Source of the DNA: an uncultured delta proteobacterium
Lineage (GTDB): Bacteria > Desulfobacterota > Binatia > Binatales > Binataceae
Reading direction: 5' to 3'
NCBI GenBank assembly: GCA_963842085.1
Contig: CAWJET010000002.1
Span: forward strand, 576,001 to 640,000
Length of the DNA: 64,000 nt
In this document: positions 451 to 27,607 of the stretch, one piece after another
Layout: each line of letters opens with the position of its first letter
How positions within the stretch are numbered: position 1 is the first letter of the stretch
Program-made: the position numbers and the translations under genes
The notes under the pieces: model-generated
Database searches by the model: none
Told to the model about the DNA's origin: nothing
The model's input: only the letters and a program-made list of their open reading frames with translations

Positions 451-1941
451 ATGACTTCGACTGTTTCCGAAACAGGCAGGGCGGTGCCCGTTTGGGCGGC
501 GTACAAGCCGGACACGAGCGCTTTCGACGAGATGCTTGATCTCTCGAGCCATCCGCGCGCTGGATGCGAGGCCGTCATCGACACGTTGTTCGCTATGCCG
601 CCCGCGCAGTTCACCGAAATCTGTGCGCGCGCCGACCGAATGTTCCGCCGCATGGGCGTGACCTTCAACGTTTACGGCGCCGCCGACGGCTCCGAGCGCA
701 TCTTTCCGTTCGATCCCATTCCGCGCGTGATCGACGCCGCCACGTGGGCCACGCTCGAGGCCGGCCTGATTCAACGTGTGCGCGCGCTCAACGCGTTCGT
801 CGCCGACGTCTACGGTGACGGATGCATCCTCGCCGACGAAGTGGTGCCGCGCGAGCTCGTCCTCGGATGCCCGCAGTTTCGCCGTGCCGCCGTCGGCATC
901 AAGCCTCCGCTGGGCAACTTCGTCACCGTCGCGGGAATCGATTTGGTGCGCGGCGTAGACGGCCGCTTTTACGTGCTCGAGGACAACCTCCGCACTCCAA
1001 GCGGCGTTTCTTACGTGATCGAAAATCGCGTCGTCATGACGCGCCTGGTCCCCACGCTGATGCGCGCATCGCGCGTTCGCTCGGTGGAGCGCTACCCCGC
1101 CGACCTGCTGCAATGCCTGATGGAGATGTCGCCGGCCGGCAAATCCAATCCCACCATCGCACTGCTCACGCCCGGCCCCTACAACTCCGCGTTCTTCGAG
1201 CACGTCTTTCTGTCGCAGCAGATGGGCATCGAGCTGGTCGAGGGCCAGGACCTGGTCTGCGTCGATCGCAAGCTCTACATGAAGGACGTTCACGGGCTGC
1301 GCCAAATCGACGTCCTCTACCGGCGCATCGACGACGACTTCCTCGACCCGCTCGTATTCCGCCCCGATTCTCTCCTCGGCGTCGCGGGCCTGACCGCGGT
1401 TCTGCGCTCCGGCAATGCCGCCATCGCCAACGGCGTCGGCACGGGAGTCGCCGACGACAAGGCCGTCTATGCCTACACGCCCGCGATGATTCGCTACTAT
1501 CTTGCCGAGGAGCCGATTCTCCCCATCGTCGAGACCTATCTGCTGCGCGACCCCGAGATTCGGGAGCAGGTGCTCAAAAATCTCGAACGCTACGTGGTCA
1601 AGCCGACCGGCGCGTCCGGCGGATACGGCGTCGTCATCGGTCCCAAGGCCGACGAAGCTGAGCTCGCCGCCACCCGCGAACGAATTCTCAACGATCCATC
1701 CGCCTTCATCGCGCAGCCCGTCATCGCGCTCTCAGTCCATCCCACGATCATTCACAACGGCTCTGAGAGCGGCATGAAGCTGATGCCGCGGCACATCGAC
1801 TTTCGCCCCTTCGTGCTGCTCGGCGCCAAGCCGCGCGTGCTGGCGGGCGGTCTGACGCGGGTCGCGCTGCGCGAGGGCTCGTTGATCGTGAATTCATCCC
1901 AGGGCGGAGGCAGCAAGGACACCTGGGTGCTCGAGGCCTGA
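451..1941 (+). CDS. Circularly permuted type 2 ATP-grasp protein (DUF404 family)
   Basis: LEDNLRTPSGVSY, GVADDKAVY, VVKPTGASGG, VNSSQGGGSKDTWVL family motifs. Confidence 0.93.
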   Translation: MTSTVSETGRAVPVWAAYKPDTSAFDEMLDLSSHPRAGCEAVIDTLFAMPPAQFTEICARADRMFRRMGVTFNVYGAADGSERIFPFDPIPRVIDAATWATLEAGLIQRVRALNAFVADVYGDGCILADEVVPRELVLGCPQFRRAAVGIKPPLGNFVTVAGIDLVRGVDGRFYVLEDNLRTPSGVSYVIENRVVMTRLVPTLMRASRVRSVERYPADLLQCLMEMSPAGKSNPTIALLTPGPYNSAFFEHVFLSQQMGIELVEGQDLVCVDRKLYMKDVHGLRQIDVLYRRIDDDFLDPLVFRPDSLLGVAGLTAVLRSGNAAIANGVGTGVADDKAVYAYTPAMIRYYLAEEPILPIVETYLLRDPEIREQVLKNLERYVVKPTGASGGYGVVIGPKADEAELAATRERILNDPSAFIAQPVIALSVHPTIIHNGSESGMKLMPRHIDFRPFVLLGAKPRVLAGGLTRVALREGSLIVNSSQGGGSKDTWVLEA

Positions 1942-2882
1942 TGCTCCGGCGAATCGCGAGTCATCTTTTCTGGACTGCGCGCAATTTGGAACGAGCCGAG
2001 TGGCGCGCGCGGCTGCTCGACGTCAACTACCATCTCCTGATCGAGAGTCCGCCGCGCGACGCGCAACCGTGGGCACCCCTGCTAGCGATTTTCGGCGAGC
2101 GCGAACTGTTTACCGAGTCCTACGCCACCGCCGACGACGCCTCCATCCTCAACTTTTTCGCGCTCGATACCGCCAATCCCAATTCGATTCGCAGTTGCAT
2201 CAACACCGCCCGCAACAACGCCATCTCGCTGCGCCATTACATCTCGTCCGAACTGTGGCTCGACCTCAACACGCTCTACCTGACCGCCCAGGAATGGACG
2301 CCCGAACTTTTCGTCTGGCCCGGCGTGTTCGCGTTCTTCGCCGATCTCAAGGACAGCTTCTATCGCCTGTCCGGCATTCGCCAGAGCACCATCCCGCGCG
2401 ACATCGCTTACGACTTCATGCAACTCGGCATCATGCTCGAGCGGACCGAGGACGTCTCCCGGCTGCTCGACGTCAAGTACCATTTCCTGCTGCCGCGGTT
2501 GGAAGACGTCGGCGGGTCGCTCGACATCCTGCAATGGGCGGCGGTACTGCGCAGCGCGTCGGGACTCGAGGCCTACCGCAAGCGCTTCGGAAACTCGATC
2601 AGAATCGACAACGTTGTCGAGATCCTGCTGTTCGATCCGACCTTCCCGCGCTCGGCGCGATTCGCGCTCGCGATGCTCGAAACCTCACTCAACCGCATCA
2701 AGAGCCAGGCGCCTGAGCCCTCGCCGCCCTACTCGCAGCTCGAGGACCTGCTGGCGCTGATGCGCTCGGAGCGCTCGCTGGAGGTGATCAAGTCCGGCCT
2801 GCATCAGTTCCTCATTCAGATTCAGGACGGATGCGCCGCGCTGGGCGACGAGGTCTTTCAACGCTACCTCAAGACCGATTGA
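1941..2882 (+). CDS. Alpha-E domain protein (DUF403)
   Basis: MLRRIASHLFW..RNLERAE and second LERTE repeat (ER motifs), FPRS; TGATG coupling to the ATP-grasp gene. Confidence 0.92.
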   Translation: MLRRIASHLFWTARNLERAEWRARLLDVNYHLLIESPPRDAQPWAPLLAIFGERELFTESYATADDASILNFFALDTANPNSIRSCINTARNNAISLRHYISSELWLDLNTLYLTAQEWTPELFVWPGVFAFFADLKDSFYRLSGIRQSTIPRDIAYDFMQLGIMLERTEDVSRLLDVKYHFLLPRLEDVGGSLDILQWAAVLRSASGLEAYRKRFGNSIRIDNVVEILLFDPTFPRSARFALAMLETSLNRIKSQAPEPSPPYSQLEDLLALMRSERSLEVIKSGLHQFLIQIQDGCAALGDEVFQRYLKTD

Positions 2883-2891
2883 ATTGACGCG

Positions 2892-3803
2892 ATGCTGCTG
2901 CGGATCTGCCACACCACCCGCTTCGAGTACCAGATGCTGGCCTACGATTCGCACAACGAGGCGCGAATGAAGCCGCTTGAAGGTGCCCATCAGCGCTGCC
3001 TGGAGTTCGAATTGATGATCAGGCCCGAGGCGTCCGCGTTTGAATACGACGACTACTACGGCAATCGCGTGCACGCCTTTTCGATCCATGTCCCGCATCC
3101 CGCGCTCATCGTGGCGGCGAAATCTCTGGTCGAGTGCATGCCCGGCCCGCGGCCCACCGCCACGTCGATGCCGTTCGGGGAGTACCTGCTCGACGACCAT
3201 ATACGCAATCGGACCGAATACGATTTCCTCAACGCCAGCCGCCACGTTCCGTTCAGTGAGCCGATGCGGAAATTTTTCTGGCTGACCAAACCCGATCCCG
3301 CCGAGGACGTGATTGCCTACGCGAACCGCGTCGTCGCCTTTGTCCGCGACCAGTTCATTTACGAGCCCGGAATGACCAAGGTGCATTCGACCGCCGACGA
3401 AATTCTCACCGTCGGCGGCGGCGTATGCCAGGACTTTGCGCATCTAACCATCGGCGTGCTCCGCCTGGCCGGCGTTCCCGCGCGCTACGTCTCCGGCTAC
3501 CTGGCGCCTGCCGCCAAATCCACGGTCGAGAGCGTAGGCGCACAAGCCAGCCACGCATGGCTCGAAGCGCAGCTACCCGGTATGGGATGGACGGGATTCG
3601 ATCCAACCAACGGATGCATGGTGGACGAGCGTCACATCCGCGTAGCCGTAGGACGCGACTACTCCGACGTTCCCCCCTTGCGCGGCGTCTATAGAAGCCA
3701 GGGCGGCAAGCAAGTGATGTCGGTGGAACTGGAGATAGAGCCGCAGCCCGATCCGCACGGGTCCGACTCGGGCAATAACGCCAACCAACAAAACCAGCAG
3801 TAA
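2892..3803 (+). CDS. Transglutaminase family protein (bacterial N-domain plus core)
   Basis: GVCQDFAH, SHAW, GFDPTN catalytic triad motifs; GRDYSDVPP; Q/N-rich tail. Confidence 0.92.
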   Translation: MLLRICHTTRFEYQMLAYDSHNEARMKPLEGAHQRCLEFELMIRPEASAFEYDDYYGNRVHAFSIHVPHPALIVAAKSLVECMPGPRPTATSMPFGEYLLDDHIRNRTEYDFLNASRHVPFSEPMRKFFWLTKPDPAEDVIAYANRVVAFVRDQFIYEPGMTKVHSTADEILTVGGGVCQDFAHLTIGVLRLAGVPARYVSGYLAPAAKSTVESVGAQASHAWLEAQLPGMGWTGFDPTNGCMVDERHIRVAVGRDYSDVPPLRGVYRSQGGKQVMSVELEIEPQPDPHGSDSGNNANQQNQQ

Positions 3804-3875
3804 CTCTTGCCCGCAGCAGTGGCCGCGCGCGACAACGGAGCGCGGCCTTAACACTGGGTGCAGGGGTCACCCCTG

Positions 3876-4649
3876 CTACTTGCCCTGGAACTTCGGCGCG
3901 CGCTTTTGCTGAAAGGCGGTGATGCCTTCCTTGTAATCCGCCGTTCGACCCGCCGCGCCTTGTGCCTGCGCCTCGCACTTCAGAACCGCGAACAGGCCCA
4001 TCGCCTCTTCGTCGATCCTGCGCACCAGGTGCTTCGAATGCATGAACGCCGCGGTCGGACCCTGCGCAACCTGCGCTGCAACCTTCCGCGTCTCCGCGGT
4101 GAGCGAGTCCTTCGGCATGCTCCGATTCACGAGTCCAAGCTGCGCCGCTTCCGCACCAGAGAGCAATCGGCCCGTGTAGATCAGCTCGAGCGCGCGATGC
4201 GTCCCGAGGCGCGAGACGAAAAACGAATGCCCGCCCGAGTCGAGCACCGCGCCGATTCGCGCGAACGGCGATCCGATCCTGGCGTCGTCGGCGACATAGA
4301 CCACGTCGCATCCCAGCGCGAGCCCCAGCCCGACTCCCAGGCACGCGCCATGCACCGCGGCAAAAGTCGGCGCCGGGAACGCGACGATTCGCTTGATCAG
4401 CGGATTGAAGGTGCTCTCGATTATCGCTTCGGCGTCCTCGGTTCCAGGATGCGCATCCGCGAGGTCGCGGCCGGCCGAGAACGCAGGACCTTCGCCGCGA
4501 ATCATCATCGCACGGACGCCCTGCGACGCCGCGCGCTCGAGGCATCCGTTGAGCTCGGCCACCATCGCGTCGTTCAACGCGTTCATCTTGTCGGCCCGGT
4601 TGAGAACGATTTCAGCAAGACCGCCTTCGACCGACAAATCGACGCTCAT
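3876..4649 (-). CDS. Crotonase-family enoyl-CoA isomerase, PaaG-like
   Basis: LNRADKMNAL, FSAGRDL; lacks both hydratase Glu residues (GVGLGLAL, SPFARIG) but keeps the Asp in LDSGG as PaaG does. Confidence 0.8.
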   Translation of the reverse strand: MSVDLSVEGGLAEIVLNRADKMNALNDAMVAELNGCLERAASQGVRAMMIRGEGPAFSAGRDLADAHPGTEDAEAIIESTFNPLIKRIVAFPAPTFAAVHGACLGVGLGLALGCDVVYVADDARIGSPFARIGAVLDSGGHSFFVSRLGTHRALELIYTGRLLSGAEAAQLGLVNRSMPKDSLTAETRKVAAQVAQGPTAAFMHSKHLVRRIDEEAMGLFAVLKCEAQAQGAAGRTADYKEGITAFQQKRAPKFQGK

Positions 4650-4669
4650 ATTGGTGGCCTCAGAGTTTT

Positions 4670-5692
4670 TCAGAACACCGGGATAATGTCCTCGGCGGTG
4701 ATATCGCCGACGTCAACTCCCTCAATATCAAGTTCGGGAATCGCGGGGAACTGGATGTCCCATTTTTCGACCAGCTTGCGCACGCGCGCGATCGCCAGCC
4801 GCCAGTTGTCCGCTTGCTGCTCGTACGTCAGAATTCCGAGCCCCGCCTCGCGCGCCACACCAAGCAGGACTCTCTGGTTATGGAGAAAATAGCCGGGCAA
4901 ATCCCAGAACTGCGCCGGCGGCTCCCACAGCACCATCGACAGGAACACGAATCCGGCCCGAAGCTGCTTGGTGATGAACGTTTTGTGCTCATCGGTGAGT
5001 CCGGGCCACTCCTTCTCGAGCAGGTTGATGCAGATCTGGAGATGACGCGCCTCGTCGCGTCCGATTTTCGTGAAGATGTCGCGGAACACCGGATGCGTCG
5101 TGGCGTGCGCCATGCCGTGGAACAGCGTCGACGATGCCACCTCACCCATCATGAACGAGGTGAAGATGACAGCGAGGGGATAACGATCGATCGCGCGGTT
5201 GTACCCGGTCCAATAGCGGCCGCCGTTATGGTAGAGCCAGCCGATATTGTTGAGTGCGACGCGCTGCAGCTCGCTGGTGGGCGTGAAGCCTTGCGGCCCG
5301 TTGGGCACCAAACGCTGGATAACGCGCTGGCAGGTCTCCTCGTGATTGGTCTCGTCGCGGGTAATGGAAAAGAAGCATTTGCGGACCGGGTCTTCCTCGT
5401 GCATCTCCCACGCATGAATCGTCGCGCGCGCGAACACCGCCGGCCCCGACGAATCGAAGTTGGACAGGAGCGCCCACCAGTACATGATCGCAACCTTCTC
5501 GTCGTCGCTCCACGCCTCGGGCGAAAGCTCGCTCCAGTTGATATCGGCGGGATTGAAGCCCTCGCGCTTGGCGCGTTCGTAAATTTCCGCGAGCTTCGGC
5601 GTCTCGCACCGCCATTCGATCGGAAAGATATTAGGCTGCGCGACGGCCGGCGTCTCGACCAGGCCGCCCGCCGGAATTTCGAATTCGGTCAT
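4670..5692 (-). CDS. Ferritin-like diiron-carboxylate protein (putative oxygenase)
   Basis: Two D-E-x-x-H motifs (RDETNH, RDEARH) plus MGEVAS; RBS GGAG upstream. Confidence 0.8.
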   Translation of the reverse strand: MTEFEIPAGGLVETPAVAQPNIFPIEWRCETPKLAEIYERAKREGFNPADINWSELSPEAWSDDEKVAIMYWWALLSNFDSSGPAVFARATIHAWEMHEEDPVRKCFFSITRDETNHEETCQRVIQRLVPNGPQGFTPTSELQRVALNNIGWLYHNGGRYWTGYNRAIDRYPLAVIFTSFMMGEVASSTLFHGMAHATTHPVFRDIFTKIGRDEARHLQICINLLEKEWPGLTDEHKTFITKQLRAGFVFLSMVLWEPPAQFWDLPGYFLHNQRVLLGVAREAGLGILTYEQQADNWRLAIARVRKLVEKWDIQFPAIPELDIEGVDVGDITAEDIIPVF

Positions 5693-5713
5693 CGGCGTTT
5701 GTCTCCCGATCTA

Positions 5714-5743
5714 AATTTACCTACCATTCGGTTGATTTGTCAA
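5714..5743 (-). promoter_or_regulatory. Sigma70-like promoter TTGACA-N18-TAAATT with an embedded PaaR-type operator ACCGA-ATGG-TAGGT (5719-5732)
   Basis: Minus strand reads TTGACAaatcaACCGAatggTAGGTAAATT just upstream of the diiron gene; 9/10 match to the ACCGA-N4-TCGGT actinobacterial PaaR box. Confidence 0.65.
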
Positions 5744-6349
5744 AACGCGGCGGCCCGCGCCCCGCCCCATCCCCTCGAACGCAACCCGAAAGATCGCCTC
5801 GGCCACCTCCGGCGCGTCGAGCCCGCCCCCCGGCCGGTACCATTCAGTAACGGAGTTGAGCATTCCGAACAGCAGCCGCGTCGCCAGCCGCGGCTCGACG
5901 TCCGCGCGCAAATCGCCCTGGCGCTGCGCATTGCGCATCACCCGGGCAATCAGATGGTCGAACGCGCGGCGCCGCTCCATGATCCGCCGCTCGACCGGAG
6001 TGTTACCGCGCACGCGCAGCAACAGCGCCACCTCGGGCAATTGATCTACGGTGATTTCGATGGTGCGATGCACGATATACTTGAGCCGCGCCGCCGCGCG
6101 GCCCCGCTTTGCGGGCCGCTCGTCGAGCACCGCGAACAGCGCGTCGAGCGCGCGTCCAACGCCACGTGCCAGCAGCTCCTCCTTGCCGCGAACGTGATAG
6201 TAGATGCTGGCCTTGGTGATTCCCGCTGCCCGCGCGATGTCGTCGAGCGAGCTGCCGTCGTACCCGCGTCTGAGAAACACGCGCACCGCCACGTCCAGGA
6301 TGGCCTCTAGGTTGTAGGGCTTGCGCTGCTTCGCCGATGGACGGCCCAC
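5717..6349 (-). CDS. TetR family transcriptional regulator, PaaR-like
   Basis: GYDGSSLDDIARAAGITKASIYYHVRGKEEL HTH; LLLRVRGNT and LLFGMLNSVTEWYRP C-terminal motifs typical of actinobacterial PaaR. Confidence 0.88.
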   Translation of the reverse strand: MGRPSAKQRKPYNLEAILDVAVRVFLRRGYDGSSLDDIARAAGITKASIYYHVRGKEELLARGVGRALDALFAVLDERPAKRGRAAARLKYIVHRTIEITVDQLPEVALLLRVRGNTPVERRIMERRRAFDHLIARVMRNAQRQGDLRADVEPRLATRLLFGMLNSVTEWYRPGGGLDAPEVAEAIFRVAFEGMGRGAGRRVLTNQPNGR

Positions 6350-6444
6350 GCGTCTGTCACCTCCAGAGGCCGAGTAGTTTGACTGGATGCGCGCGCGCTT
6401 GCCAGTCTTCTTTCACCGTCAGTGATGTCGCCGGGGAAACCACG

Positions 6445-7272
6445 ATGAAATTTGCAGTCGCAATCCGCAACATGGGGCCGCAATCCGATCGCTCGACGAT
6501 TCGCGCCTGTGCACGAATCGCAGAGCAAGCCGGCTTCGACGCGCTCTTCGTCTCCGACCATTTGTGCATTCCGCCCGACCAGACCGAAGGTTCCGGCGGG
6601 CGCTATCTCGACGTGCTCGCCACGCTGGCCTTCATCGCCGGCGCGACCGAGAAAATCCGGCTCGGTGTTTCGGTGCTGGTCGTCCCCTACCGGCCCGCCG
6701 TATTGACAGCGAAGCAGGTCGCGACGATCCAGGAATTGTCCGGCGAGCGAATGATCCTCGGCGTGGGTGTCGGATGGATGAAGCCGGAGTTCGCCGCTCT
6801 CGGCGCCGACATCCGGCAGCGCGGCGCCGTTACCGACGAAACGTTGAGCGTGATTCATCATCTGTTCAGCGCCGATGTACCCGGCGCGTACGACGGCCCG
6901 CTCGTGAAGTTTCCGTCCTTCGTGTTCCTGCCAAGACCCAAGTGCCCGCCGATTTGGATCGGCGGCAACGGTGCGGCGGCGATAAATCGTGCGCTGAAAT
7001 TCGGCGACGGCTGGCATCCGATGCTGCCCGCATCGGAACTTAAAGCAAAAGTTGAAGAATTGCTTGCGCGCTCACGGGCGACGGGTCGCGCGCTGCCTGA
7101 AATTATCGTCCGGCGAGGGCTACGGCTCGACGATATCGCCGGGGCGCGCGCGAAAGTCGCGGCTGAGCGGGAAGCCGGCGCGACCTATTTCATCCTGGAC
7201 CTGGGGCGCTATCCGAACGAGCAATCGTTCGGCGCATCGGTCGAGACTTTCATGGCGAAAGTCGCGAACTAG
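6445..7272 (+). CDS. LLM-class (probably F420-dependent) oxidoreductase
   Basis: AEQAGFDALFVSDH, LGVGVGW, PPIWIGG, GDGWHP; start set to ATG 6445. Confidence 0.88.
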   Translation: MKFAVAIRNMGPQSDRSTIRACARIAEQAGFDALFVSDHLCIPPDQTEGSGGRYLDVLATLAFIAGATEKIRLGVSVLVVPYRPAVLTAKQVATIQELSGERMILGVGVGWMKPEFAALGADIRQRGAVTDETLSVIHHLFSADVPGAYDGPLVKFPSFVFLPRPKCPPIWIGGNGAAAINRALKFGDGWHPMLPASELKAKVEELLARSRATGRALPEIIVRRGLRLDDIAGARAKVAAEREAGATYFILDLGRYPNEQSFGASVETFMAKVAN

Positions 7273-8510
7273 ATAATTTTGTCGCGGCGGAGCGACTCGA
7301 AATCGTCTGGGCGGACGCCGAGCATCTCGCGATAGACGCGATCGTTGTCGTATCCGACCGGCACCGACCCGCGAACGATTTTCCCGGGCGTCAGTGAAAA
7401 CTTTGGCACGACGCCGATGCCCTTCACCTTGCCCACCTGCTCGTCTTGCCATTCGACGTGCATCCCGCGCGCGCGGTATTGCGGGTCCTCGGCGATGTCC
7501 TTGCTGGTCATGATTGGCGAGCACGGCACGTTGGCATTCGCCATCGCCGCAACGACTTCCTTCACGGTGCGCTCGGAAATCCATCCGCGCAGGAGCGCGT
7601 CGAACTCGATTCCTTCGATCGATTCGAGTTGGGTGCGCGCCGTCTCCCATTTCGGGTCGGCGGAATCGAGCCCGATCACGCGCAGCAGCCGTCCGTACAC
7701 GTCGCCGATCGCGCCCATCACGACCCATCCGTCGCTGGCCTGGAACGAATCGAGCGGCTGGAATCCCTGCGCGCGATTTCCGGAGCGCTCGCGCACGATG
7801 CCGTTCTGGAAGTATTCGACCATCGTGCCGCCCAATGTCTTGTGAATCGCCTCGTACTGCGCGACATCGATCGACTGACCCTTGCCGGTCGCGCGCGCAT
7901 AAGTCAGGCCGGCAAGCGAGGACCACATCGCGAACAGCGCGGTCAGGTAGTCGCCCGTCCACGGCGCGGCGCGTGTCGGTGGAGTGGGGTCGGGGAAGCC
8001 GGTCTGGTACATCATGCCACCGGCGGCCTGCCCTACCACGTCATACGACGCGCGATGCACGTAATCGGGATCCCCGCTTTGCCCGAAGCCCGACACGTGA
8101 GTGATTACCAACTTCGGATTGACCGTCCAAATCGCCGCGTCGTCGAGGCCCCATTTTGGGTAGGTGCCCGGCCTTGAGCTTTCCATCAAGATGTCGGCGC
8201 GCGCGATGAGTTTCAAAAAGATTTCGCGGCCGCGCGGCTTCGACAAATCGAGCGAGACGCAGAACACGTTGCGCCGTTCCTGGATCCAGGTAGTCGCGAC
8301 GGCGGAGTTGCCGTCCTTGGTCTTGAGCCTGATGCCGATATTGCGCCATCCGACGTCGCCTATTCCCGGCCGCTCGATCTGGATCACTTCCGCGCCCATT
8401 TCAGCCGCCAGCTCGGCAGCGAACGGTTGCGCAATCAACGTCCCGGTTGAGACGATCTTTACACCCTGCAGCGGCCCGAATTTTTCAGTAACCAGGTTCT
8501 CGATGCTCAT
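7269..8510 (-). CDS. CaiB/BaiF family III CoA-transferase
   Basis: GPLQGVKIV, AEMGAEVIQIE, SGFGQSG, SYD, GD catalytic region; start set to ATG 8510. Confidence 0.9.
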   Translation of the reverse strand: MSIENLVTEKFGPLQGVKIVSTGTLIAQPFAAELAAEMGAEVIQIERPGIGDVGWRNIGIRLKTKDGNSAVATTWIQERRNVFCVSLDLSKPRGREIFLKLIARADILMESSRPGTYPKWGLDDAAIWTVNPKLVITHVSGFGQSGDPDYVHRASYDVVGQAAGGMMYQTGFPDPTPPTRAAPWTGDYLTALFAMWSSLAGLTYARATGKGQSIDVAQYEAIHKTLGGTMVEYFQNGIVRERSGNRAQGFQPLDSFQASDGWVVMGAIGDVYGRLLRVIGLDSADPKWETARTQLESIEGIEFDALLRGWISERTVKEVVAAMANANVPCSPIMTSKDIAEDPQYRARGMHVEWQDEQVGKVKGIGVVPKFSLTPGKIVRGSVPVGYDNDRVYREMLGVRPDDFESLRRDKII

Positions 8511-8682
8511 GCATTCTCCGGTCGGAGGACGAAAAATCTTGCGCGATGATGCCTGTTTTTGTCCGGAGGGGGCAATATGAGCGCTGCAGCCGGTCGATTG
8601 CATGCCGTTTGCGGAGAGCGTTTTCCATCGACTCGTTGCGGGCTATTATATTTACAAGCGGGATGATTGTGCCGAGGGCGGC

Positions 8683-10014
8683 GTGAATTCACCTCTGACT
8701 CTACTGAAAAGCGACTCTCTAAACCGGCGCGAACTGACGTTCAAGGCTCTTGCGGGCTTGGTCGGCGGCGCGATCGGATGGCTGCCCGTCGAGCTGGCCT
8801 CGCACAACTCTCATCTCGGCGAAGTGCAGACGACGGGCGCGCTGGTCGCGTATTACATCTCGGCGGCGATGGCTGCGGGCGCGATCGGGGCGTTCATAAC
8901 GGCGGTGGATACATCCGACGTTCGCGTGACGCCGGAGACCAAGCGCCGCTTCATTCGCGGTTTCGTGATCTGCGCGCTGCTCTCGCTGCTCTCCACTTAC
9001 TTCGGAAATTATGTGTTCAACGCGGTTCTCCAGGCCGGCGGAGTCGGCTTCAGTCCAAATGGCGAGCTGGTTTCGGGGTCGATTATAACGCTCGTGATCG
9101 CAAGGCTCCTGGGATGGGCCATCGACGGAGCGCTGGTGGGCGCCGGCGTGGGACTGGCGACGCTGACGATGGAGAACGTGCCCAAGGGAGCGGTGGGCGG
9201 ACTGGTGGGCGGTGCGGTCGGCGGTATCGGCTTCGATTTGATCGGCTGGATCGTCGGCGGCGGCCTGGCGTCGCGGTTCTTCGGCGAAGCCGTCACCGGC
9301 CTTGCGATCGGGTTGTTCATCGGGCTGGTCCAGGAGCTGACCAAGGCCGCGTGGGTCACCGTCGAGCAGGGCCGGCTGCGCGGACGCCAGTACCGGATCG
9401 AAGGCGCGCGCGCAACGATTGGGCGCGCCGAGGAAAATCCGGTCGGCCTGTTCGGCGATCCGCTGGTGCAACAGCGGCACGCGGTGATCGAACGGCGCGG
9501 CGCCGACTACGTGATTAGAAATCTCGCGATCCAGGACGGCACCTTCGTCAACGGCCAGCGAATCGAGAGCGTTGACCTGCACGACGGCGATCGAATCAAC
9601 ATCGGCGGCTACGAAATGATGTTCCACCTGCGCGGGACGTCGGCGCCGGCGCGGCAACAGGCGTCGCTGGCGGCAGATGCGGTGAATCCCGCGCATGTCG
9701 CCACGCGGCTGGCCGGCCCAAAGGCGAAGGTCGACGGCCCGAGCCTGGTCGATGTGTCGGGGCAGCCCTACCCGGTCGTGGCCGGCGCGGTTACTCGCGT
9801 CGGGCGCGCCCTCGACAATGAAATCGTGGTCAGCCATTCCTCGGTCTCGCGCCATCACGCGAGCATCGAAAATTCCAACGGCGCCTTCGTGGTGCGCGAC
9901 CTCAACAGCCAGAACGGAACGTTCGTCGGCAACCGGCGCGTGACCGAGCCAACGCGCGTGAGCGACGGCGACAGCGTAAGGTTCGGCGACGCGCAGTTTA
10001 CCTTCCGTGGCTGA
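8683..10014 (+). CDS. Multi-pass membrane protein with two C-terminal FHA domains
   Basis: Gly-rich TM region followed by IGRAEEN..RHA..GTFVNG and VGRALDN..VSRHHA..SQNGTFV; GTG 8683 after GAGG. Confidence 0.88.
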   Translation: MNSPLTLLKSDSLNRRELTFKALAGLVGGAIGWLPVELASHNSHLGEVQTTGALVAYYISAAMAAGAIGAFITAVDTSDVRVTPETKRRFIRGFVICALLSLLSTYFGNYVFNAVLQAGGVGFSPNGELVSGSIITLVIARLLGWAIDGALVGAGVGLATLTMENVPKGAVGGLVGGAVGGIGFDLIGWIVGGGLASRFFGEAVTGLAIGLFIGLVQELTKAAWVTVEQGRLRGRQYRIEGARATIGRAEENPVGLFGDPLVQQRHAVIERRGADYVIRNLAIQDGTFVNGQRIESVDLHDGDRINIGGYEMMFHLRGTSAPARQQASLAADAVNPAHVATRLAGPKAKVDGPSLVDVSGQPYPVVAGAVTRVGRALDNEIVVSHSSVSRHHASIENSNGAFVVRDLNSQNGTFVGNRRVTEPTRVSDGDSVRFGDAQFTFRG

Positions 10015-10348
10015 CGCGGAGTTCGAGAAGCCGAGGTTCTGCTCGCGATGCGGGCAGCCGATCATCGTCGCCGAGGCAAGCTTCTGCAAATCGTGCGGCG
10101 CGCCGGTGACTCGTTTCCCGCTGCTGCGTCAAAATCCGGGGTTCAGCCCGGTGCTCGCGCTCGTGTTGAGCATCGTTCCCGGCGTCGGCCACATTTACCG
10201 GGGCAAACCCTTCAAGGGAATTATGTGGTTTTTTTTCGTATCGATAGCGTACGGCATGGGGCCGCCGCTCGGCGTCCTCATTCACATCATATGCGCGGCC
10301 AATGCGGCCTTCTCGGGCGCGCTACGCGAGGACATGCTGGCGAGATAA
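10007..10348 (+). CDS. Zinc-ribbon plus membrane (TM2-like) protein
   Basis: FCSRCG..FCKSCG ribbon, then ALVLSIVPGVGHIY and further TM helices. Confidence 0.8.
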   Translation: MADAEFEKPRFCSRCGQPIIVAEASFCKSCGAPVTRFPLLRQNPGFSPVLALVLSIVPGVGHIYRGKPFKGIMWFFFVSIAYGMGPPLGVLIHIICAANAAFSGALREDMLAR

Positions 10349-10408
10349 GCATAAGACTCCCGCCGGCTGCCAAAAAATCGAAGTGATGGTTAGAATCCTA
10401 TTAAAGCC

Positions 10409-11920: not shown

Positions 11921-11930
11921 CATCCACTTC

Positions 11931-12587
11931 ATGATCGTCGACCTGCACGTCCACACGCGGCTTTCGTCCGACTCCAACGTCGCGCCGGAACAGTATCTCG
12001 AATTCGCGAAAAGCTCGGGCCGCGGACTCGGCGCGATCTGCTTCACCGAGCATCGCCTGTTCCCCGCTGACGCCGAAGTCGACCGGCTCTACGCGGAACT
12101 CGCGGAGCGATTTCAGATTGCGATTTTCAAGGGAATCGAGGCCGACACCGACCTCGGTCACCTGCTGCTTCTCGGCGTCACCAGCGAAGTGACGCGGCGA
12201 TTCGATCTGACGGCGCGGATGCTCAAGAGTGACAGCCTGATCGAGGTGATTCATCATGAAGGCGGCGTCGCGATACCCGCGCATCCGTTTCGCGACTCCG
12301 GCTATGGCTCGCGGCTGGACGCACTGCTCAGCCGTCATGGTGCGGCGATTGGCGCGGTCGAAGTGCTTAACGGCCAGAACTCGAGCGAGGAGAACCGGCG
12401 CGCGGAGGATGCGGCGCTCAAGCTCGGGCTGACGGCGGTCGGCGGCAGCGATGCTCATTTCGCGACTGCGAAATGGTTCATGACGGTCGCGACGGAGTTC
12501 GAACGCGAGGTAAACACGGTCGAGCAGATGTGCGCGGAAATCCGCGCCGGACGCGCGCGTCCCTATGTCTTTACGGGTTCGGACTGA
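11931..12587 (+). CDS. PHP-domain metallophosphoesterase
   Basis: DLHVHT, TEH, GIE, AHP, GGSDAH. Confidence 0.9.
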   Translation: MIVDLHVHTRLSSDSNVAPEQYLEFAKSSGRGLGAICFTEHRLFPADAEVDRLYAELAERFQIAIFKGIEADTDLGHLLLLGVTSEVTRRFDLTARMLKSDSLIEVIHHEGGVAIPAHPFRDSGYGSRLDALLSRHGAAIGAVEVLNGQNSSEENRRAEDAALKLGLTAVGGSDAHFATAKWFMTVATEFEREVNTVEQMCAEIRAGRARPYVFTGSD

Positions 12588-16965: not shown

Positions 16966-18168
16966 TTACTTGATCGCGCCTGCTTCGCGCCAGCGGTCAA
17001 GCTCGTCCTTGCCGTAGCCAAGCTCGCCGAGGATTTGGTCGGTATGCTGGCCGAGTTGCGGCGCGAGTGACCTTATCGATCCGGGCGTATCCGAGAACTT
17101 CGCCGACATGCCCACCTGCTTGACCTGCTTGCCGCCGGGAGCTTCGACCTCGACGATCATGTTGCGCGCGAGCACTTGCGGATCGTTCGGCACTTCGTCG
17201 AGCGTGAGCATCCGGCCGGCGCAGATGTCGCTCTTGCTCAAAATCTCGAACCATTCATCGCGCGTTTTGGTTTTGAACGTCTCGGTGAACGCGCGTGCGA
17301 TCTCCGCGCGTTTGCTAGAGTCATACTCGTGCGGAATAAAATCCGCGCGGCCCAGCGCACGGCAAAGGTTGGCGAAGAACCAGGGCTCGATCGCCGCGAT
17401 CGTAATGTATTTGTCGTCCTTCGTAAGATAGACGTTGTAGTTTGGGATGCCGCCGTCGTTTATCGTCTCGCCGCGCCGCGGCACTTTGTGGTTCGCGAAA
17501 AATGTCGAGAACGCCTGCGCCAGCAGCGCCAGGCTGCCGTCCATCATCGAGATGTCTACATACTGTCCCCGCCCGGTCTGGTTGCGCGCGACCAATGCGG
17601 CGAGCACTCCGATCGCGCCATGCATCCCGCCGCCGGCGTAGTCCGCGACCACATTGTGCGGAATTGTCGGCGGCTGGCCGGGACGCCCGAACAGCGACAG
17701 CACGCCGGCCGTCGCGATGTAGTTGATGTCGTGGCCGACGAGATCGCGGTACGGCCCGGTCTGTCCGTAGCCGGTGATGGCGCAATAGATTAGCCGCGGA
17801 TTGCGCGAAGCGAGTTTCTCGTAATCGATCCCGAGCCGCTTGGCGACGCCCGGCCGGTATTCCTCGACGATCACGTCGGCGCGCTGCGCGAGGCGACAGT
17901 AGATCTCCTTGCCGGCGCCGCTCTTGAGATTGATCCCAATCGACTTCTTGTTGCGCGCGAGCGCGTTGTACGGCGAGCTGCTGAAGCTATTTCCCGCAGC
18001 GCGCGTGCCGGCGGCGCCCGCCTGCTGTGCGCGTCTTCCGGTGGGAGGTCCCGGCTCTTCGATCCTGATCACGTCCGCGCCAAGGTCCGCCAGGATCATC
18101 GTGCAAAACGGTCCCGGTGCGAGCTTGGTCAGGTCAAGTACTTTGATTCCGTCGAGTGGTCCAGGCAT
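16966..18168 (-). CDS. CaiB/BaiF family III CoA-transferase (AMACR-like)
   Basis: PLDGIKVLDL, PGPFCTMILADLGADVI, RNKKSI, GHDINY, ADYAGG. Confidence 0.92.
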   Translation of the reverse strand: MPGPLDGIKVLDLTKLAPGPFCTMILADLGADVIRIEEPGPPTGRRAQQAGAAGTRAAGNSFSSSPYNALARNKKSIGINLKSGAGKEIYCRLAQRADVIVEEYRPGVAKRLGIDYEKLASRNPRLIYCAITGYGQTGPYRDLVGHDINYIATAGVLSLFGRPGQPPTIPHNVVADYAGGGMHGAIGVLAALVARNQTGRGQYVDISMMDGSLALLAQAFSTFFANHKVPRRGETINDGGIPNYNVYLTKDDKYITIAAIEPWFFANLCRALGRADFIPHEYDSSKRAEIARAFTETFKTKTRDEWFEILSKSDICAGRMLTLDEVPNDPQVLARNMIVEVEAPGGKQVKQVGMSAKFSDTPGSIRSLAPQLGQHTDQILGELGYGKDELDRWREAGAIK

Positions 18169-18221
18169 CGTCGGTCCCCCGGAAGAACTGTTGAATGAGT
18201 AAGCGAGCGATTCGGGCGAGG

Positions 18222-18620
18222 CTATTGATATGGATTCACCGGCTGCGGCTGCGGATACCCATTCATCTGCGGTGCCTGTTGCGCATCGCCTGGATCGGTG
18301 TCGGGCGCGTCCGCCTGCGGCACAGTGGCCTGATCGTTGCCGGCCGCATTTTGATCGGTCTGGTTGCCGTCGGCGTTCTGATTCTGGTCGGCACTATTGT
18401 TGGAATCGCTGTCGCTGTCGCTGCTGTTATCGTTGTCGTTATCGCTGTCGGTAGTGCCGACGCTCGGCTGATCCTCCTGGGCGACGACCGTGCCGCGCGG
18501 CGACGCTTGCGCCTGGCGGGTCGTCGGCGCCCGATTCGCAGTGTCGCGAGTCGAAGCGCACGCCATCGGCGGCGCAACTATCAGAAGAAACGCGGCTGTC
18601 AGGCTGACTTTTGAGAACAT
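18222..18620 (-). CDS. Secreted low-complexity D/N/Q-rich hypothetical protein
   Basis: Signal-peptide-like N-terminus, GGAG RBS, DSDNDNDNSSDSDS tract. Confidence 0.65.
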   Translation of the reverse strand: MFSKVSLTAAFLLIVAPPMACASTRDTANRAPTTRQAQASPRGTVVAQEDQPSVGTTDSDNDNDNSSDSDSDSNNSADQNQNADGNQTDQNAAGNDQATVPQADAPDTDPGDAQQAPQMNGYPQPQPVNPYQ

Positions 18621-18673
18621 ACTAATCTCCGTTCACTGCGCTCGACCGCACGGCGTCGTTGCGCACGGCTGGA

Positions 18674-19510
18674 TTATAGAACTGCCGCGCGTACCCGCGC
18701 CATTCTTTCCGCCAGCGATTTGAGTCCCCCCACCATGTGAACGCCGTACCAATGCAGGTCGCGGCCGCTGACCAGCAGCACGCGGCGGCTGAGCGCGGGC
18801 GGCAGCATGGTCTTCAACTCGGCGACGTCGGACTCGTCGAATTCATAGGGCTCGTCGGGAAGTATAACGATATCAGGGCGGCGTTCGAGCGCCTCTTCGA
18901 GCGTCGTCATGGGATAGCGCTCACCCACTGACGCAAAAATATTGTTGTAGCCGAGCATCCGCAGCACGTCATGCGCATAGGTGTCGGCGTTGAACGACAT
19001 CCACGGGTTCTTCCATATCGGGCAGAAAACGCGGAGCCGCAGTTTGCTCCATACCCCGAGCGCCGCCTCGATTCCGCTCACGCTGAGCGTTATCTCCTTG
19101 GCCAGCGCGGCGGCAGCCGGCTCGCGCCCGAGCACGCGGCCCATCCGTAAGATCGATTCGACCGCGCCCGGCACCGTGCGCGGATAGGTCGTAAACACCG
19201 GGATCCCCGCCGCGCGCAGCCGTTCCACGTCCTCGCGCCGGTTCTCCTCGGCGTTCGCGATCACCAGCTCGGGTTCGAGCTTGACGATTGCGCGAATGTC
19301 GGGGTTCTTGGTCCCGCCAACTTTTGGAATCGACGCTACCGCCGCAACCGGTTCGACGCAGAATTTCGTCACGCCCACGACCTCGGAATTGAAGCCCAGC
19401 GCGAACAGGGTCTCCGTCCAGCTCGGCACCAACGACACAATCCGCGCCGGCGGCCGCTCGAGCTCGACGCGAAAGCCCATGTCGTCGGGTATTTGCATCG
19501 AGGCCGCCAT
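18674..19510 (-). CDS. Helical-backbone metal/cobalamin-binding protein (BtuF-like)
   Basis: RIVSLVPSWTETL, GVTKFC, GGTKNPD, EENRRED, PDEPY. Confidence 0.85.
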   Translation of the reverse strand: MAASMQIPDDMGFRVELERPPARIVSLVPSWTETLFALGFNSEVVGVTKFCVEPVAAVASIPKVGGTKNPDIRAIVKLEPELVIANAEENRREDVERLRAAGIPVFTTYPRTVPGAVESILRMGRVLGREPAAAALAKEITLSVSGIEAALGVWSKLRLRVFCPIWKNPWMSFNADTYAHDVLRMLGYNNIFASVGERYPMTTLEEALERRPDIVILPDEPYEFDESDVAELKTMLPPALSRRVLLVSGRDLHWYGVHMVGGLKSLAERMARVRAAVL

Positions 19511-19521
19511 CTAAGCGTTGG

Positions 19522-19911
19522 TCACTTGGCCTTGCCCTTGATGATCGCGTCCAGCTCGCCGCGATCGCTGGGCGTCAGTTGCTCTGAGCCGGATTGCGCG
19601 CCGGCATTTGATTTCGCATTCGCCGCAGACGAGTCATTCGCCCCGCCCTGCCCTTCGGTTGCAGCAGGAGGATTTGCTTCTTTCATCGGTTGCGACTGAT
19701 CGGGTGGCCGATATGCGAGGTAGTGGACCGCCGACGGGATCATGATTCGTTTCGCCAAAAATCCCAAAATCAGCGCCGCCAGCCCGGCCAGCGCGAGCAC
19801 TCCCAGCCGCCGCGTCCGCTTCTTTTTCGCCGGTCGTTTCGCCCTTGCGCGCTTTCGCGCCGGCGCCACTCGTGCTCGATCCGCCACCTGCTTCCTCTCC
19901 ACCGCGAGCAA
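19522..19911 (-). CDS. Hypothetical single-pass membrane protein
   Basis: Basic N-terminus, one TM helix, fills the gap between co-oriented genes; exact start uncertain. Confidence 0.6.
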   Translation of the reverse strand: MLAVERKQVADRARVAPARKRARAKRPAKKKRTRRLGVLALAGLAALILGFLAKRIMIPSAVHYLAYRPPDQSQPMKEANPPAATEGQGGANDSSAANAKSNAGAQSGSEQLTPSDRGELDAIIKGKAK

Positions 19912-19920
19912 CCTCAGATG

Positions 19921-21156
19921 CTATCGCACAGACTCACCTAATAGAACCGCGCGAGCCCATCGAGCGATGAGGCGTCGAGTCGGTACTTCGTCGAGGTGCC
20001 GCGCGCCGTTGTACCAATCCACGCCGATTTCCTGTGCGCGGCGGCTGATGCGCGCGAGCCGGAAGAAGAGCCTGTTGTGCGGACCGTAAAAGTGGCGTGC
20101 CGCAAACGCGAGCTTGCTCAGCTTCGCGCCCACCGCACCTTCATGCAGCGCGCGATCGTAAGCCTGCAGCGCGCCACGGTCGCCGTCCAGAAAATTGCGG
20201 ATTGCATTCGCCGCCAGCTTGCCGTGCTCGAACGCGCACGAGATTCCTTCGCCCATCAGCGGATCGACGCCAGCCGCATCGCCGGCGAGAATCACGCGTC
20301 CGCGAGTGTAGCGGTCCCTGGCGTCGAACCATCGAATCGGGAACGAATGCCATCGCTTCGCATGCCGCTTCAGCCCGTCGAGCGGAAGTTCGGGGAAGGC
20401 CGCGACGAGTTCCGCTATCATCCGCGATTGTTCGCCGCCGTTTTCAGCCAATTCGCGCGGGCGCTGATCGTAAATGCCTACATTAAGATGCGGTGCGTCG
20501 CCGATCAGGCATGGAAACGACCAGCTATAGCCGTTGATGCCCCCGCTCACGCAGCGGAAGTCGAACCTATAGCGTTTCTCGATAAATTCCGGTGCGCGCT
20601 CGGGATCGACCGCGATGTCCGTCATCAATGCGCGCCCGATCGTCTCCTTGCCAGCGCCAAATATGGCTCGACGGACCCGGCTGCCCGAGCCGTCGGCTCC
20701 GACGAGCACCTGGCTCTCGAACATGCCGCGCTCCGTGCTGACGCGCACACCGCCAGCGTCCTGAGCAACGTCGAGCACACGAGTGCGCTCGACTAGTTCG
20801 ACTCCGGCGTCGCGCGCGGCCCGTGCCAGCATCGCGTCGAACCGGTCGCGGCGAATCACGGTGCAGAGCACGTCGCCGACGCGCGACAAATCGACGCGGC
20901 CAGCGGGAGTCACGGCTTCACCGCGAATCACTTCGACAGCGGGAGCGTTCAGCACAATTCCAAGTTCGTCGAGCGCCAGGAGCGTTTTGGGAATCAGCCC
21001 GCCGGCGCATACTTTGAATCGCGGATGCGCTGATTTCTCGAGCGCGACGATTCGACTGGCCAGGCTGGGCCGATTCTTAACGAGAAAAAGCGCGGTCGCC
21101 AGTCCAGCGGGACCGGCGCCGGCAATTAACACGTCACATTTTCGCGGAGATTCCAT
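19921..21156 (-). CDS. FAD-dependent oxidoreductase, geranylgeranyl/menaquinone reductase family
   Basis: GAGPAG, HPRFKVCAGG, GADG, GYSWSFP, AGDAAGVDPLMGEGI. Confidence 0.87.
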   Translation of the reverse strand: MESPRKCDVLIAGAGPAGLATALFLVKNRPSLASRIVALEKSAHPRFKVCAGGLIPKTLLALDELGIVLNAPAVEVIRGEAVTPAGRVDLSRVGDVLCTVIRRDRFDAMLARAARDAGVELVERTRVLDVAQDAGGVRVSTERGMFESQVLVGADGSGSRVRRAIFGAGKETIGRALMTDIAVDPERAPEFIEKRYRFDFRCVSGGINGYSWSFPCLIGDAPHLNVGIYDQRPRELAENGGEQSRMIAELVAAFPELPLDGLKRHAKRWHSFPIRWFDARDRYTRGRVILAGDAAGVDPLMGEGISCAFEHGKLAANAIRNFLDGDRGALQAYDRALHEGAVGAKLSKLAFAARHFYGPHNRLFFRLARISRRAQEIGVDWYNGARHLDEVPTRRLIARWARAVLLGESVR

Positions 21157-27589: not shown

Positions 27590-27607
27590 AATTTTTCTCC
27601 GCGTTGC

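Follow-up and report, generated by a model that had tools for sequence, protein, structure and literature searches.

An R2-like diiron protein family as a candidate replacement for the phenylacetyl-CoA epoxidase PaaABC(D)E

A three-gene operon in a 64,000-nucleotide (nt) stretch of DNA from an uncultured member of the Binataceae (assembly GCA_963842085.1, contig CAWJET010000002.1, positions 576,001 to 640,000; hereafter the window) encodes a TetR-family regulator, a ferritin-like diiron protein of 340 amino acids (aa) and a crotonase. Here, we propose that the diiron protein represents a family that has probably taken the place of PaaABC(D)E by non-orthologous replacement, epoxidising phenylacetyl-coenzyme A (phenylacetyl-CoA) or a close aryl-CoA, with the crotonase serving as PaaG-type isomerase. 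The ring epoxidation of phenylacetyl-CoA is otherwise performed by the multi-subunit enzyme PaaABC(D)E. The original prediction for this operon held that an undescribed diiron family may replace PaaABCE, or act on another aryl-CoA; the idea of a replacement has gained support from the linkage of the family to paa genes, its complementarity with canonical PaaA/PaaC in Eremiobacterota, a TetR that is 54% identical to one heading a canonical paa operon, and key residues of the crotonase.

Operon organization

The operon comprises the following genes:

5717..6349, minus strand: TetR-family regulator, likely a PaaR-type operon repressor (210 aa, GTG start; TetR_N and TetR_C_24 domains)
4670..5692, minus strand: R2-like/ferritin-like diiron-carboxylate protein, candidate aryl-CoA ring epoxidase (340 aa; subfamily A)
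3876..4649, minus strand: crotonase-fold protein, PaaG-like isomerase (257 aa; ECH_1, 1.7e-52; codon of D137 at 4239-4241)

All three open reading frames (ORFs), predicted as a co-oriented TetR, a 340-aa ferritin-like protein and a crotonase, are present in the order TetR-diiron-crotonase on one strand (window 3876-6349), separated by intergenic gaps of 24 and 20 nt.

The diiron protein stands apart from known families

The 340-aa protein was described at the outset as unlike PaaA, PaaC or BoxB, and sequence comparisons bear this out, with every model search below its cut-off or without a match. PaaA_PaaC (PF05138) gives no match at E ≤ 1; the best NCBIfam match has an E-value of 0.005, with the PaaA (TIGR02156) and BoxB (TIGR03225) models absent at E ≤ 1. 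The strongest Pfam signal comes from AurF, at 24.8 bits (E 1.5e-5) below the gathering cut-off of 29.6 and restricted to residues 174-264, followed by weaker matches to Rubrerythrin, COQ7 and AOX, all of them sub-threshold. The proposed search with hidden Markov models of PaaA_PaaC, BoxB and AurF hence leaves the protein in none of these families. When its family alignment was compared with three bona fide PaaA sequences using hhalign, the probability was 0.4%. A phmmer search against all PDB chains yielded no R2 or R2lox sequence match at E ≤ 10, its whole yield being two chance-level matches (E ~1), and a look-up in the Atlas returned generic ‘ferritin-like’ names only.

The motifs first noticed in the protein are confirmed: NFDSS at residues 78-82, with its Asp at position 80, RDETNH at 112-117 and RDEARH at 212-217, to which E184 adds a further candidate metal ligand. 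In a 24-sequence alignment of the family, D213 is invariant, D113, E114, H117, E184, E214, R216 and H217 are each at least 90% conserved, and position 80 holds an acidic residue (D or E) in 23 of the 24 rows. An Asp as first metal ligand is also found in class Ia R2 proteins. The predicted ligands were assigned from alignment conservation and helix positions in the structural model, and their codons fall within 5042..5455 (minus strand):

5453-5455, minus strand: D80, predicted metal ligand
5351-5353, minus strand: E114, predicted metal ligand
5342-5344, minus strand: H117, predicted metal ligand
5141-5143, minus strand: E184, predicted metal ligand
5051-5053, minus strand: E214, predicted metal ligand
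5042-5044, minus strand: H217, predicted metal ligand

In an AlphaFold (AF2) model calculated from this alignment (predicted local distance difference test, pLDDT, 88.8; predicted template-modelling score, pTM, 0.86), these six candidates sit on four long helices (63-96, 101-128, 178-197 and 201-231). The protein thus has a predicted carboxylate/His diiron site on a four-helix bundle, a feature that is superfamily-wide and not specific to PaaA. Foldseek ranked R2lox and the R2 subunits of ribonucleotide reductase (RNR) highest in the PDB (E ~1e-4, template-modelling scores of 0.5-0.6), and an exhaustive structural comparison gave the following scores:

R2lox (4hr0): Z 19.2 (root-mean-square deviation 3.2, 262 residues aligned)
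human R2: Z 19.0
protein resembling aldehyde-deformylating oxygenase (6d9f): Z 19.0
paa-like protein SSO1313: Z 16.5
MMOH: Z 16.2
PaaC (3pvr_B): Z 15.2
AurF: Z 14.8
CmlI: Z 14.2
BoxB: Z 14.2

The suggested comparison of a predicted structure with the Paa and Box enzymes therefore places PaaC and BoxB below R2lox. Judged by sequence searches and the predicted fold, the diiron protein is a separate family in the R2-like/ferritin superfamily, outside PaaA/C, BoxB and AurF.

A side feature of the protein is its C-terminal tail (residues 316-340, window 4670-4744; PAIPELDI.G.DV..I..EDIIPVF), which is strongly conserved even in relatives of 36-47% identity and whose end is modelled at low confidence. 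By analogy with the tails of R2 proteins, it might serve to bind a partner, for instance a reductase.

The family is compact and mostly keeps its operon partners within Binataceae

A word-indexed search with the diiron protein returned 943 clusters at E ≤ 0.001, many of whose members carry precomputed AurF labels. The best 120 clusters (66-96% identical) belong to Binataceae, Eremiobacterota, Actinomycetota and Dehalococcoidia and are named ‘hypothetical protein’ or ‘rubrerythrin’. As only 232 of 1.84 billion representatives (50% identity) matched at E ≤ 0.001 when searched exhaustively, the family is compact and strongly conserved. Relatives occur in 514 species genomes, counting one genome per species, and the neighbourhood analysis covers the best 80 of these 514 loci, 78 of which hold 3.8-21 kb; the stretches of L016 (1.6 kb) and L019 (3.8 kb) are so short that most neighbours fall outside them.

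The nearest relatives are loci of Candidatus Binatus or other Binataceae at 96-98% identity. The crotonase gene directly follows the diiron gene in Binataceae-type loci, down to 65% crotonase identity, except in L016, L062 and L063, and the TetR gene adjoins the diiron gene in most related loci. Of the 13 loci that are furthest in sequence (L068-L080, 67-70% identical), only L076 has the crotonase, and eight have a TetR (51-56% identical). Crotonase orthologues near the diiron gene are present in two Actinomycetota genomes, at 63% (L076) and 59% (L108) identity. Two further genome samples were left out of the cross-tabulation below: a phylum-level sample around the window's genome, in which 1 of 121 matched (the window's genome itself), and a class-level sample around G005 with 3 matches in 201.

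The diiron gene is linked to paa genes outside Binataceae and shares a syntenic slot with paaABCE in Eremiobacterota

The neighbourhood check that had been suggested for homologues revealed linkage to paaZ, paaN, paaI, paaK-like and paaX genes in other phyla. Using the NCBIfam equivalog cut-offs for PaaZ, PaaN, PaaI and PaaK (563, 579, 119 and 646 bits), we found PaaZ beside the diiron gene in L073, L076, L077 and L079 (989-1029 bits), PaaN in L070 (816 bits) and PaaI in L073 and L077 (142 and 134 bits). PaaK-like ligases with AMP-binding and AMP-binding_C_2 domains lie in L068, L073, L077 and L079. The distant loci also feature a divergent gene for an E1 dehydrogenase subunit, several Eremiobacterota loci have an ammonium-transporter gene after the diiron gene, and L076 has a FAD_binding_3 ring-hydroxylase gene nearby. 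None of the five genomes that hold L070, L073, L076, L077 and L079 contains a PaaA_PaaC match.

We profiled one evenly drawn sample of 151 Eremiobacterota genomes for the diiron protein, PaaA_PaaC, PaaZ and PaaN. The diiron protein is present in 14 genomes and canonical PaaA/C in eight, seven with adjacent paired matches above 300 bits and G133 with a PaaA fragment beside PaaZ where the contig ends, and the two sets do not overlap. PaaZ (E ≤ 1e-100) occurs in ten genomes, four of them diiron-positive and six PaaA/C-positive, while all nine genomes with PaaN are diiron-positive, with the PaaN gene at most ~3.5 kb from the diiron gene. Taken together, the 17 genomes with PaaZ or PaaN at this threshold divide into 11 with the diiron protein and six with PaaA/C, none having both and none having neither; the remaining 134 genomes comprise three with the diiron protein, two with PaaA/C and 129 with neither. 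The expected anticorrelation with paaA/paaC was thus observed as complementarity in this phylum, and its strict form is broken elsewhere by the metagenome-assembled genome (MAG) G556, considered in the Discussion. The sampled genomes are related to one another, their completeness was not reported, and the sample includes G132 (flagged unpublished), which has a weak PaaA_PaaC match only. Weak PaaA_PaaC-superfamily matches (25-104 bits) occur in many genomes and were not counted as canonical; some of them may be BoxB, since a true BoxB scores 39 bits on PF05138. Beyond this sample, G401 carries the diiron gene and PaaZ without PaaA/C or PaaN, and the Binataceae genome G557 carries the diiron gene without PaaA/C, PaaZ or PaaN.

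The two types of cluster also share a framework. Three canonical Eremiobacterota clusters read E1 dehydrogenase, divergent from TetR-PaaZ-PaaA-(PaaB)-PaaC-PaaE-(PaaG)-PaaI-thiolase-PaaK, with scores of 348 bits for PaaG (cut-off 345), 133 for PaaI (119) and 697 and 708 for PaaK (646). The diiron clusters read (PaaZ)-E1 dehydrogenase, divergent from TetR-diiron-(ammonium transporter)-PaaK-like-PaaI. Between the types, TetR is 61-69%, the E1 subunits 69-73% and PaaZ 61-64% identical; one and the same framework thus holds either paaABCE or the single diiron gene.

As a separate observation, in each of three diiron-positive Eremiobacterota genomes a PaaA_PaaC-superfamily match (93-104 bits) contains a single in-frame TGA (G103:C33:41049-41735; G125:C60:21548-22231; G141:C4:269311-269988), which could reflect two genes, a frameshift or recoding.

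A sister subfamily comes with a reductase

Relatives with 46-54% identity to the window's diiron protein form a clade of their own (subfamily B; support 99/100), sister to the subfamily A of the window. In four of five subfamily-B loci, the diiron gene is adjacent to a gene for a reductase of the FNR type with an N-terminal 2Fe-2S domain; L104 has none. These reductases are 52-66% identical to each other across Eremiobacterota, an Actinomycetota-class genome and Binataceae, and 27-33% identical to PaaE. The subfamily-B gene supplies the missing reductase for the diiron family at large. In the window itself, none of the 54 ORFs scanned with Pfam contains a reductase-type domain (Fer2, FAD_binding_6 or NAD_binding_1), in agreement with the earlier remark that no reductase gene is adjacent.

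Subfamily B is linked to phenylacetate genes as well. In L103, PaaX and PaaZ (959 bits) accompany a PaaK-like-4HBT-ECH-reductase-diiron series, and in L105 the reductase gene is divergent from diiron-3-hydroxyacyl-CoA dehydrogenase-ECH-ECH-thiolase, with PaaZ (898 bits) elsewhere in the genome. Both genomes lack canonical PaaA/C. With these contexts, both subfamilies are linked to paa genes.

The TetR regulator and the crotonase resemble their phenylacetate counterparts

The window's TetR (TetR_N 1.3e-15, TetR_C_24 1.9e-23) had been called PaaR-like, and its relationships point the same way. It is 54% identical over 196 aa to the TetR located directly upstream of a canonical PaaZ-PaaA-PaaC-PaaE cluster (L101, Eremiobacterota), to which it appears orthologous, and 55-57% identical to the TetRs beside Eremiobacterota diiron genes; identity to a TetR_C_24 paralogue in its own genome is only 29%. 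Its best NCBIfam match is the Bacillus FadR model, at 64 bits far below the cut-off. A search for operator palindromes upstream of six TetR genes found none that the window shares with L101, the canonical cluster. Three Eremiobacterota diiron loci (L069, L070 and L077) do carry GC-rich, near-perfect palindromes with the core ACGCCGCG..CGCGGCGT, ~20-100 nt upstream of the TetR start in the divergent E1 dehydrogenase/TetR region; these are absent from the window and L101 and could be an operator or a hairpin.

For the crotonase, the description as a protein without the hydratase Glu residues and with a PaaG-type Asp proved accurate. In alignments with solved structures, G109 and F129 occupy both catalytic-Glu positions of the hydratase 5zai, and D137 takes the position of D136 in Thermus thermophilus PaaG (3hrx/6sl9). 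Its top solved relatives include T. thermophilus PaaG (143 bits) and E. coli PaaG (4fzw_C, 136.5 bits), compared with 111.9 bits for PaaF. The PaaG model TIGR02280, which the PaaG of a canonical Eremiobacterota cluster matches at 347.8 bits, is passed by none of 14 control genomes, six of which give some match. We consider this cut-off strict, since T. thermophilus, which presumably has a working PaaG, is among the controls that fail it. In five diiron-positive genomes outside Binataceae, the search for a PaaG equivalog gave 207-232 bits, below the cut-off, and none of the 14 controls passed either. A passage of a review on tropone names Asp136 as the catalytic residue of T. thermophilus PaaG and describes PaaG as homologous to delta3,delta2-enoyl-CoA isomerases (PMC7497051).

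The family in Binataceae

The window belongs to an assembly of 4.93 Mb in two contigs that is 100% complete. Within it, the PaaA_PaaC superfamily is represented by two lone weak genes (73 and 44 bits) in unrelated contexts, with no paaABCE cluster and no match of BoxB size. In an evenly drawn sample of 81 Binataceae genomes, the diiron gene is present in 53 (42 of 57 high-quality genomes), and no PaaA_PaaC match exceeds 84 bits; these tallies include the genomes G318, G291, G333, G316 and G346 (diiron-positive) and G351 (negative), which are flagged unpublished.

Two relatives place the operon among genes for aromatic compounds. In L051, TetR-diiron-crotonase is directly followed on the same strand by BoxC (748 bits, cut-off 712) and BoxB (685 bits, cut-off 499), with no boxA in the stretch examined:

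L051:11077-14294, same strand as TetR-diiron-crotonase: boxC and boxB (equivalog cut-offs passed), then an APH-family kinase and another crotonase

In L064, genes for a family III CoA-transferase, a Peripla_BP_2 protein and a FAD_binding_3 monooxygenase lie directly upstream of diiron-crotonase, at -1264, -2152 and -3715 nt from the diiron gene. They are 76%, 71% and 65% identical to an orthologous block of the window:

16966..21156, minus strand: second CoA-transferase III, Peripla_BP_2 protein and FAD_binding_3 monooxygenase (Pfam)

A different diiron candidate in the same genome deserves mention in its own right. One of the two weak superfamily genes encodes a lone 266-aa PaaA-like ferritin protein (L083:8463-9263, G000:C2 at ~305.5 kb; PF05138 73 bits, TIGR02156 80.6 bits against a cut-off of 280), clustered with a TetR_C_24 regulator, two short-chain dehydrogenases/reductases, an AMP-binding ligase and a Haem_oxygenase_2/TenA-like protein and with no PaaB, PaaC or PaaE. 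Matches of this kind (64-84 bits) occur in at least 29 of the 81 Binataceae genomes, and the protein may be another orphan diiron system.

Discussion

We propose that the operon would serve to attack the ring of an aromatic acid activated with CoA, most probably phenylacetyl-CoA or a near analogue, in two regulated steps. The 340-aa diiron protein would use O2 and two electrons for epoxidation, and thereby dearomatisation, of the ring, and the crotonase would convert the labile epoxide to its oxepin-CoA form. The TetR would be a PaaR-type repressor that is relieved by the aryl-CoA, the diiron protein of subfamily B would be served by its dedicated 2Fe-2S/FNR reductase, and in Binatus the substrate thioester could possibly come from the family III CoA-transferase. 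The reaction, the substrate and the effector of TetR are what we infer here from gene context, homology and modelling.

Several findings weigh against this proposal. In the window's complete genome, there is no PaaB, and the best matches to PaaK (83 bits, cut-off 646), PaaZ (110 bits, cut-off 563) and PaaN (37 bits, cut-off 579) all fall far short; likewise, PaaZ was found at E ≤ 1e-80 in none of the 81 Binataceae genomes, a sample in which PaaN was not searched. Since no PaaZ, PaaN, PaaK or PaaB is recognisable in the genome, Binatus may use another aryl-CoA, the alternative already named in the original prediction, or another downstream route. Neither a linked reductase in subfamily A nor an orthologue of the subfamily-B reductase in the window's genome (best 32% over 136 aa) was found. 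The crotonase scores 182.6 bits on its best NCBIfam model, PaaG TIGR02280, below the cut-off of 345.15, and five diiron-positive genomes outside Binataceae have no orthologue of it at E ≤ 1e-40. Where scored, the ligases beside subfamily-A genes reach 272-280 bits on the PaaK model (cut-off 646), and they share only 35-36% identity with the true PaaK proteins (697 and 708 bits) from the canonical clusters of Eremiobacterota, so the substrate may not be phenylacetate itself, leaving room for a different aromatic acid. The Eremiobacterota proteins of subfamily A form a single clade, so that the split of 11 versus six genomes may record very few events. Finally, G389 and G555 (Actinomycetota-class) have the diiron gene without PaaZ, PaaN or PaaA/C, and in the MAG G556 it coexists with PaaZ and canonical PaaA/C (271 and 177 bits); unless this bin is chimeric, exclusivity is not absolute.

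A more specific version of the proposal, which we regard as possible yet doubtful, takes subfamily A to be a truly single-polypeptide R2-like epoxidase without dedicated partners or reductase. It would feed a so far undescribed aerobic aromatic-CoA route in Binataceae that bypasses ring hydrolysis by PaaZ/PaaN altogether, with a family III CoA-transferase in place of the ligase, the PaaG-like isomerase and possibly the F420-dependent LLM-class oxidoreductase encoded next to the operon.

How else could the diiron protein be accounted for? It may act in aryl-CoA metabolism as an accessory enzyme and not as the epoxidase, carrying out another oxidation such as ring or alpha-carbon hydroxylation, desaturation or the handling of shunt products and toxic intermediates. 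The coexistence with PaaA/C in G556 fits this view, as do the union with BoxC/BoxB in L051, which already includes an epoxidase, the frequent neighbour PaaI, by its NCBIfam name a hydroxyphenylacetyl-CoA thioesterase, and the associated ligase, which is not a PaaK equivalog. However, an enzyme with such a role should appear alongside PaaA/C, which the diiron protein never does in the 151 Eremiobacterota genomes; all 11 diiron genomes with PaaZ or PaaN have no canonical epoxidase to provide oxepin-CoA, and the diiron gene sits in the same syntenic slot as paaABCE. On balance, we hold an accessory role to be unlikely. Still less likely appears an O2-dependent desaturase or hydroxylase of fatty or alicyclic acyl-CoA, paired with a crotonase of the delta3,delta2-enoyl-CoA isomerase type and a FadR-like TetR, for which the paa linkage in other phyla would be lineage-specific and without bearing on Binatus. 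R2lox, which binds a lipid-type ligand, and aldehyde-deformylating-oxygenase-like proteins are the best structural matches, and a feature-based Atlas look-up places fatty-acid-desaturase clusters among the protein's neighbours. The FadR model as best, far sub-threshold TetR match (64 bits), the missing PaaZ in the Binataceae sample and the homology of PaaG to such isomerases noted in the tropone review (PMC7497051) agree with it too. Against it stand the paa-linked members in both subfamilies and two phyla, which suggest that the link probably predates the Binataceae clade, the 54% identity of the window's TetR to a paa-operon TetR, and Binataceae contexts that hold BoxCB and FAD ring-hydroxylase genes, not beta-oxidation genes.

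In our estimate, a role as arylamine N-oxygenase of the AurF/CmlI type, or as some other small-molecule oxidase that has nothing to do with CoA esters, is highly improbable for the protein. The weak AurF Pfam match (E 1.5e-5, 24.8 bits), the AurF labels on many family members and the ammonium-transporter gene in several Eremiobacterota loci hint in this direction, but that match stays under its cut-off of 29.6 over residues 174-264 only, the fold agreement (Z 14.8) is no better than that with many other diiron proteins, and the conserved partners are enzymes of CoA esters (crotonase, CoA-transferase, PaaZ, PaaN and PaaI).

Compared with known enzymes, the proposed epoxidase shares with PaaA of PaaABC(D)E the diiron-carboxylate four-helix bundle with two ExxH motifs, the predicted pathway role with a PaaG-type isomerase as the next functional step and, in Eremiobacterota, the syntenic slot by E1-dehydrogenase, TetR, PaaZ, PaaI and PaaK-type genes. 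It differs from PaaA and PaaC, which are accompanied by partner subunits (PaaB, PaaC, PaaE), in being a single polypeptide in a genome without PaaB and with no PaaC or PaaE partner nearby; its fold is closer to R2lox (Z 19.2) than to PaaC (Z 15.2), and the 2Fe-2S domain of PaaE is C-terminal, whereas that of the subfamily-B reductase is N-terminal. BoxAB is likewise a diiron system of few subunits, and the diiron protein would similarly act on the ring of an aryl-CoA; in one Binataceae locus (L051), the operon is even contiguous with boxC-boxB. BoxB, however, is ~470 aa long and matches TIGR03225 (684.6 bits for the BoxB of L051), whereas the window protein has 340 aa, gives no match and aligns at Z 14.2. 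R2lox and class I RNR R2 offer the best structural matches (Z 19.2 and 19.0 over ~260 residues), but the aligned structures share just 10-16% identity, the sequences give no match, and the surrounding genes belong to CoA-ester catabolism and not to nucleotide reduction. AurF/CmlI are diiron oxygenases made of one polypeptide, have no reductase gene dedicated to them and provide the only curated sequence model with any signal, but that signal is partial and sub-cut-off, the structural scores are 14.8 and 14.2, and no arylamine-pathway neighbours were seen. Lastly, subfamily B resembles the soluble multicomponent diiron monooxygenases, which have MmoC/TmoF-type reductases, in its pairing with an N-terminal-2Fe-2S/FNR reductase that may be likened to MmoC, and the hydroxylase alpha subunits of these enzymes match the model at Z 15-16. 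Their hydroxylases are ~500 aa in length compared to 340 aa, the diiron loci lack beta, gamma and regulatory subunit genes, and the window's subfamily lacks even a linked reductase.

Aerobic breakdown of phenylacetate, into which phenylalanine, styrene and many other aromatics are funnelled, is currently believed to require PaaABC(D)E for ring epoxidation. Our full-text literature searches, which did not cover supplementary files, returned no description of this diiron family or of a PaaABCDE-independent phenylacetyl-CoA epoxidase, and passages of the GapMind paper (PMC9007349) gave none either. A 2026 survey, which filters ligase predictions by co-location with PaaABCDE, puts PaaA/PaaC forward as robust markers of the pathway in genomes (PMC13186573). 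If our proposal holds true, such marker-based surveys would overlook the pathway in Eremiobacterota, in part of the Actinomycetota and perhaps in Binataceae, carriers that are abundant and largely uncultured in soil and peat. It would also offer enzymology a far simpler one- or two-gene epoxidase and a source of reactive oxepin and tropone precursors, and the Binataceae version would point to an undescribed fate of the ring epoxide.

Further features and genes around the operon

Additional features close to the operon are:

5714..5743, minus strand: sigma-70-like promoter match (TTGACA-18-TAAATT, 10/12) at the TetR 3' end, a short distance upstream of the diiron start
6337..7272, plus strand: divergent F420-dependent LLM-class oxidoreductase (Bac_luciferase; TIGR03619 215.5 bits, cut-off 166.9)
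7269..8603, minus strand: family III CoA-transferase, CaiB-like (CoA_transf_3 3.2e-95; best NCBIfam match 279 bits, below its cut-off of 413)

The promoter-like site (5743..5714) is a consensus match alone, with two sites found versus 0.6 expected from shuffled sequences; it could by itself drive diiron-crotonase. The LLM oxidoreductase is a conserved neighbour within Binataceae only (80 related loci), the CoA-transferase is a conserved operon neighbour in the same family, and both are kept, along with TetR, in most Binataceae-type loci. An antisense ORF (3858-4892, plus strand) was considered as an alternative to the crotonase and rejected because the minus-strand genes have strong family matches.

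A metatranscriptomic library contains contigs of relatives, mostly less than 95% alike, that cover all three operon genes, and two of them bridge the crotonase/diiron (4498-4741) and diiron/TetR (5421-5748) junctions. As such libraries can hold DNA and a contig does not show a single transcript, we do not take them as evidence of expression. A DNA contig from a soil metagenome joins window position 5706 to 6371 via 36 other letters and so lacks the TetR gene, in agreement with the related loci L017, L021, L025, L028 and L050, in which the diiron and LLM genes are present and a TetR match is absent.

On the other side of the crotonase, a convergent triad of circularly permuted ATP-grasp, Alpha-E and transglutaminase-like genes (451-3803, plus strand) adjoins the diiron gene in none of the 80 related loci. 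Beyond the CoA-transferase follow genes (8602-12587, plus strand) for a protein with two FHA domains, a zinc-ribbon Ser/Thr protein kinase and a PHP-domain protein; across Binataceae, the FHA gene keeps its synteny with the operon. Further away (27092-29179, minus strand, and 30017-30583, plus strand), genes for glyoxalase/dioxygenase-superfamily and cupin-glyoxalase proteins stand beside an ECF-type sigma factor, and one for a membrane protein of the fatty-acid-hydroxylase family stands beside a PadR regulator; these glyoxalase/cupin and hydroxylase-family genes may be further oxidative catabolic genes.

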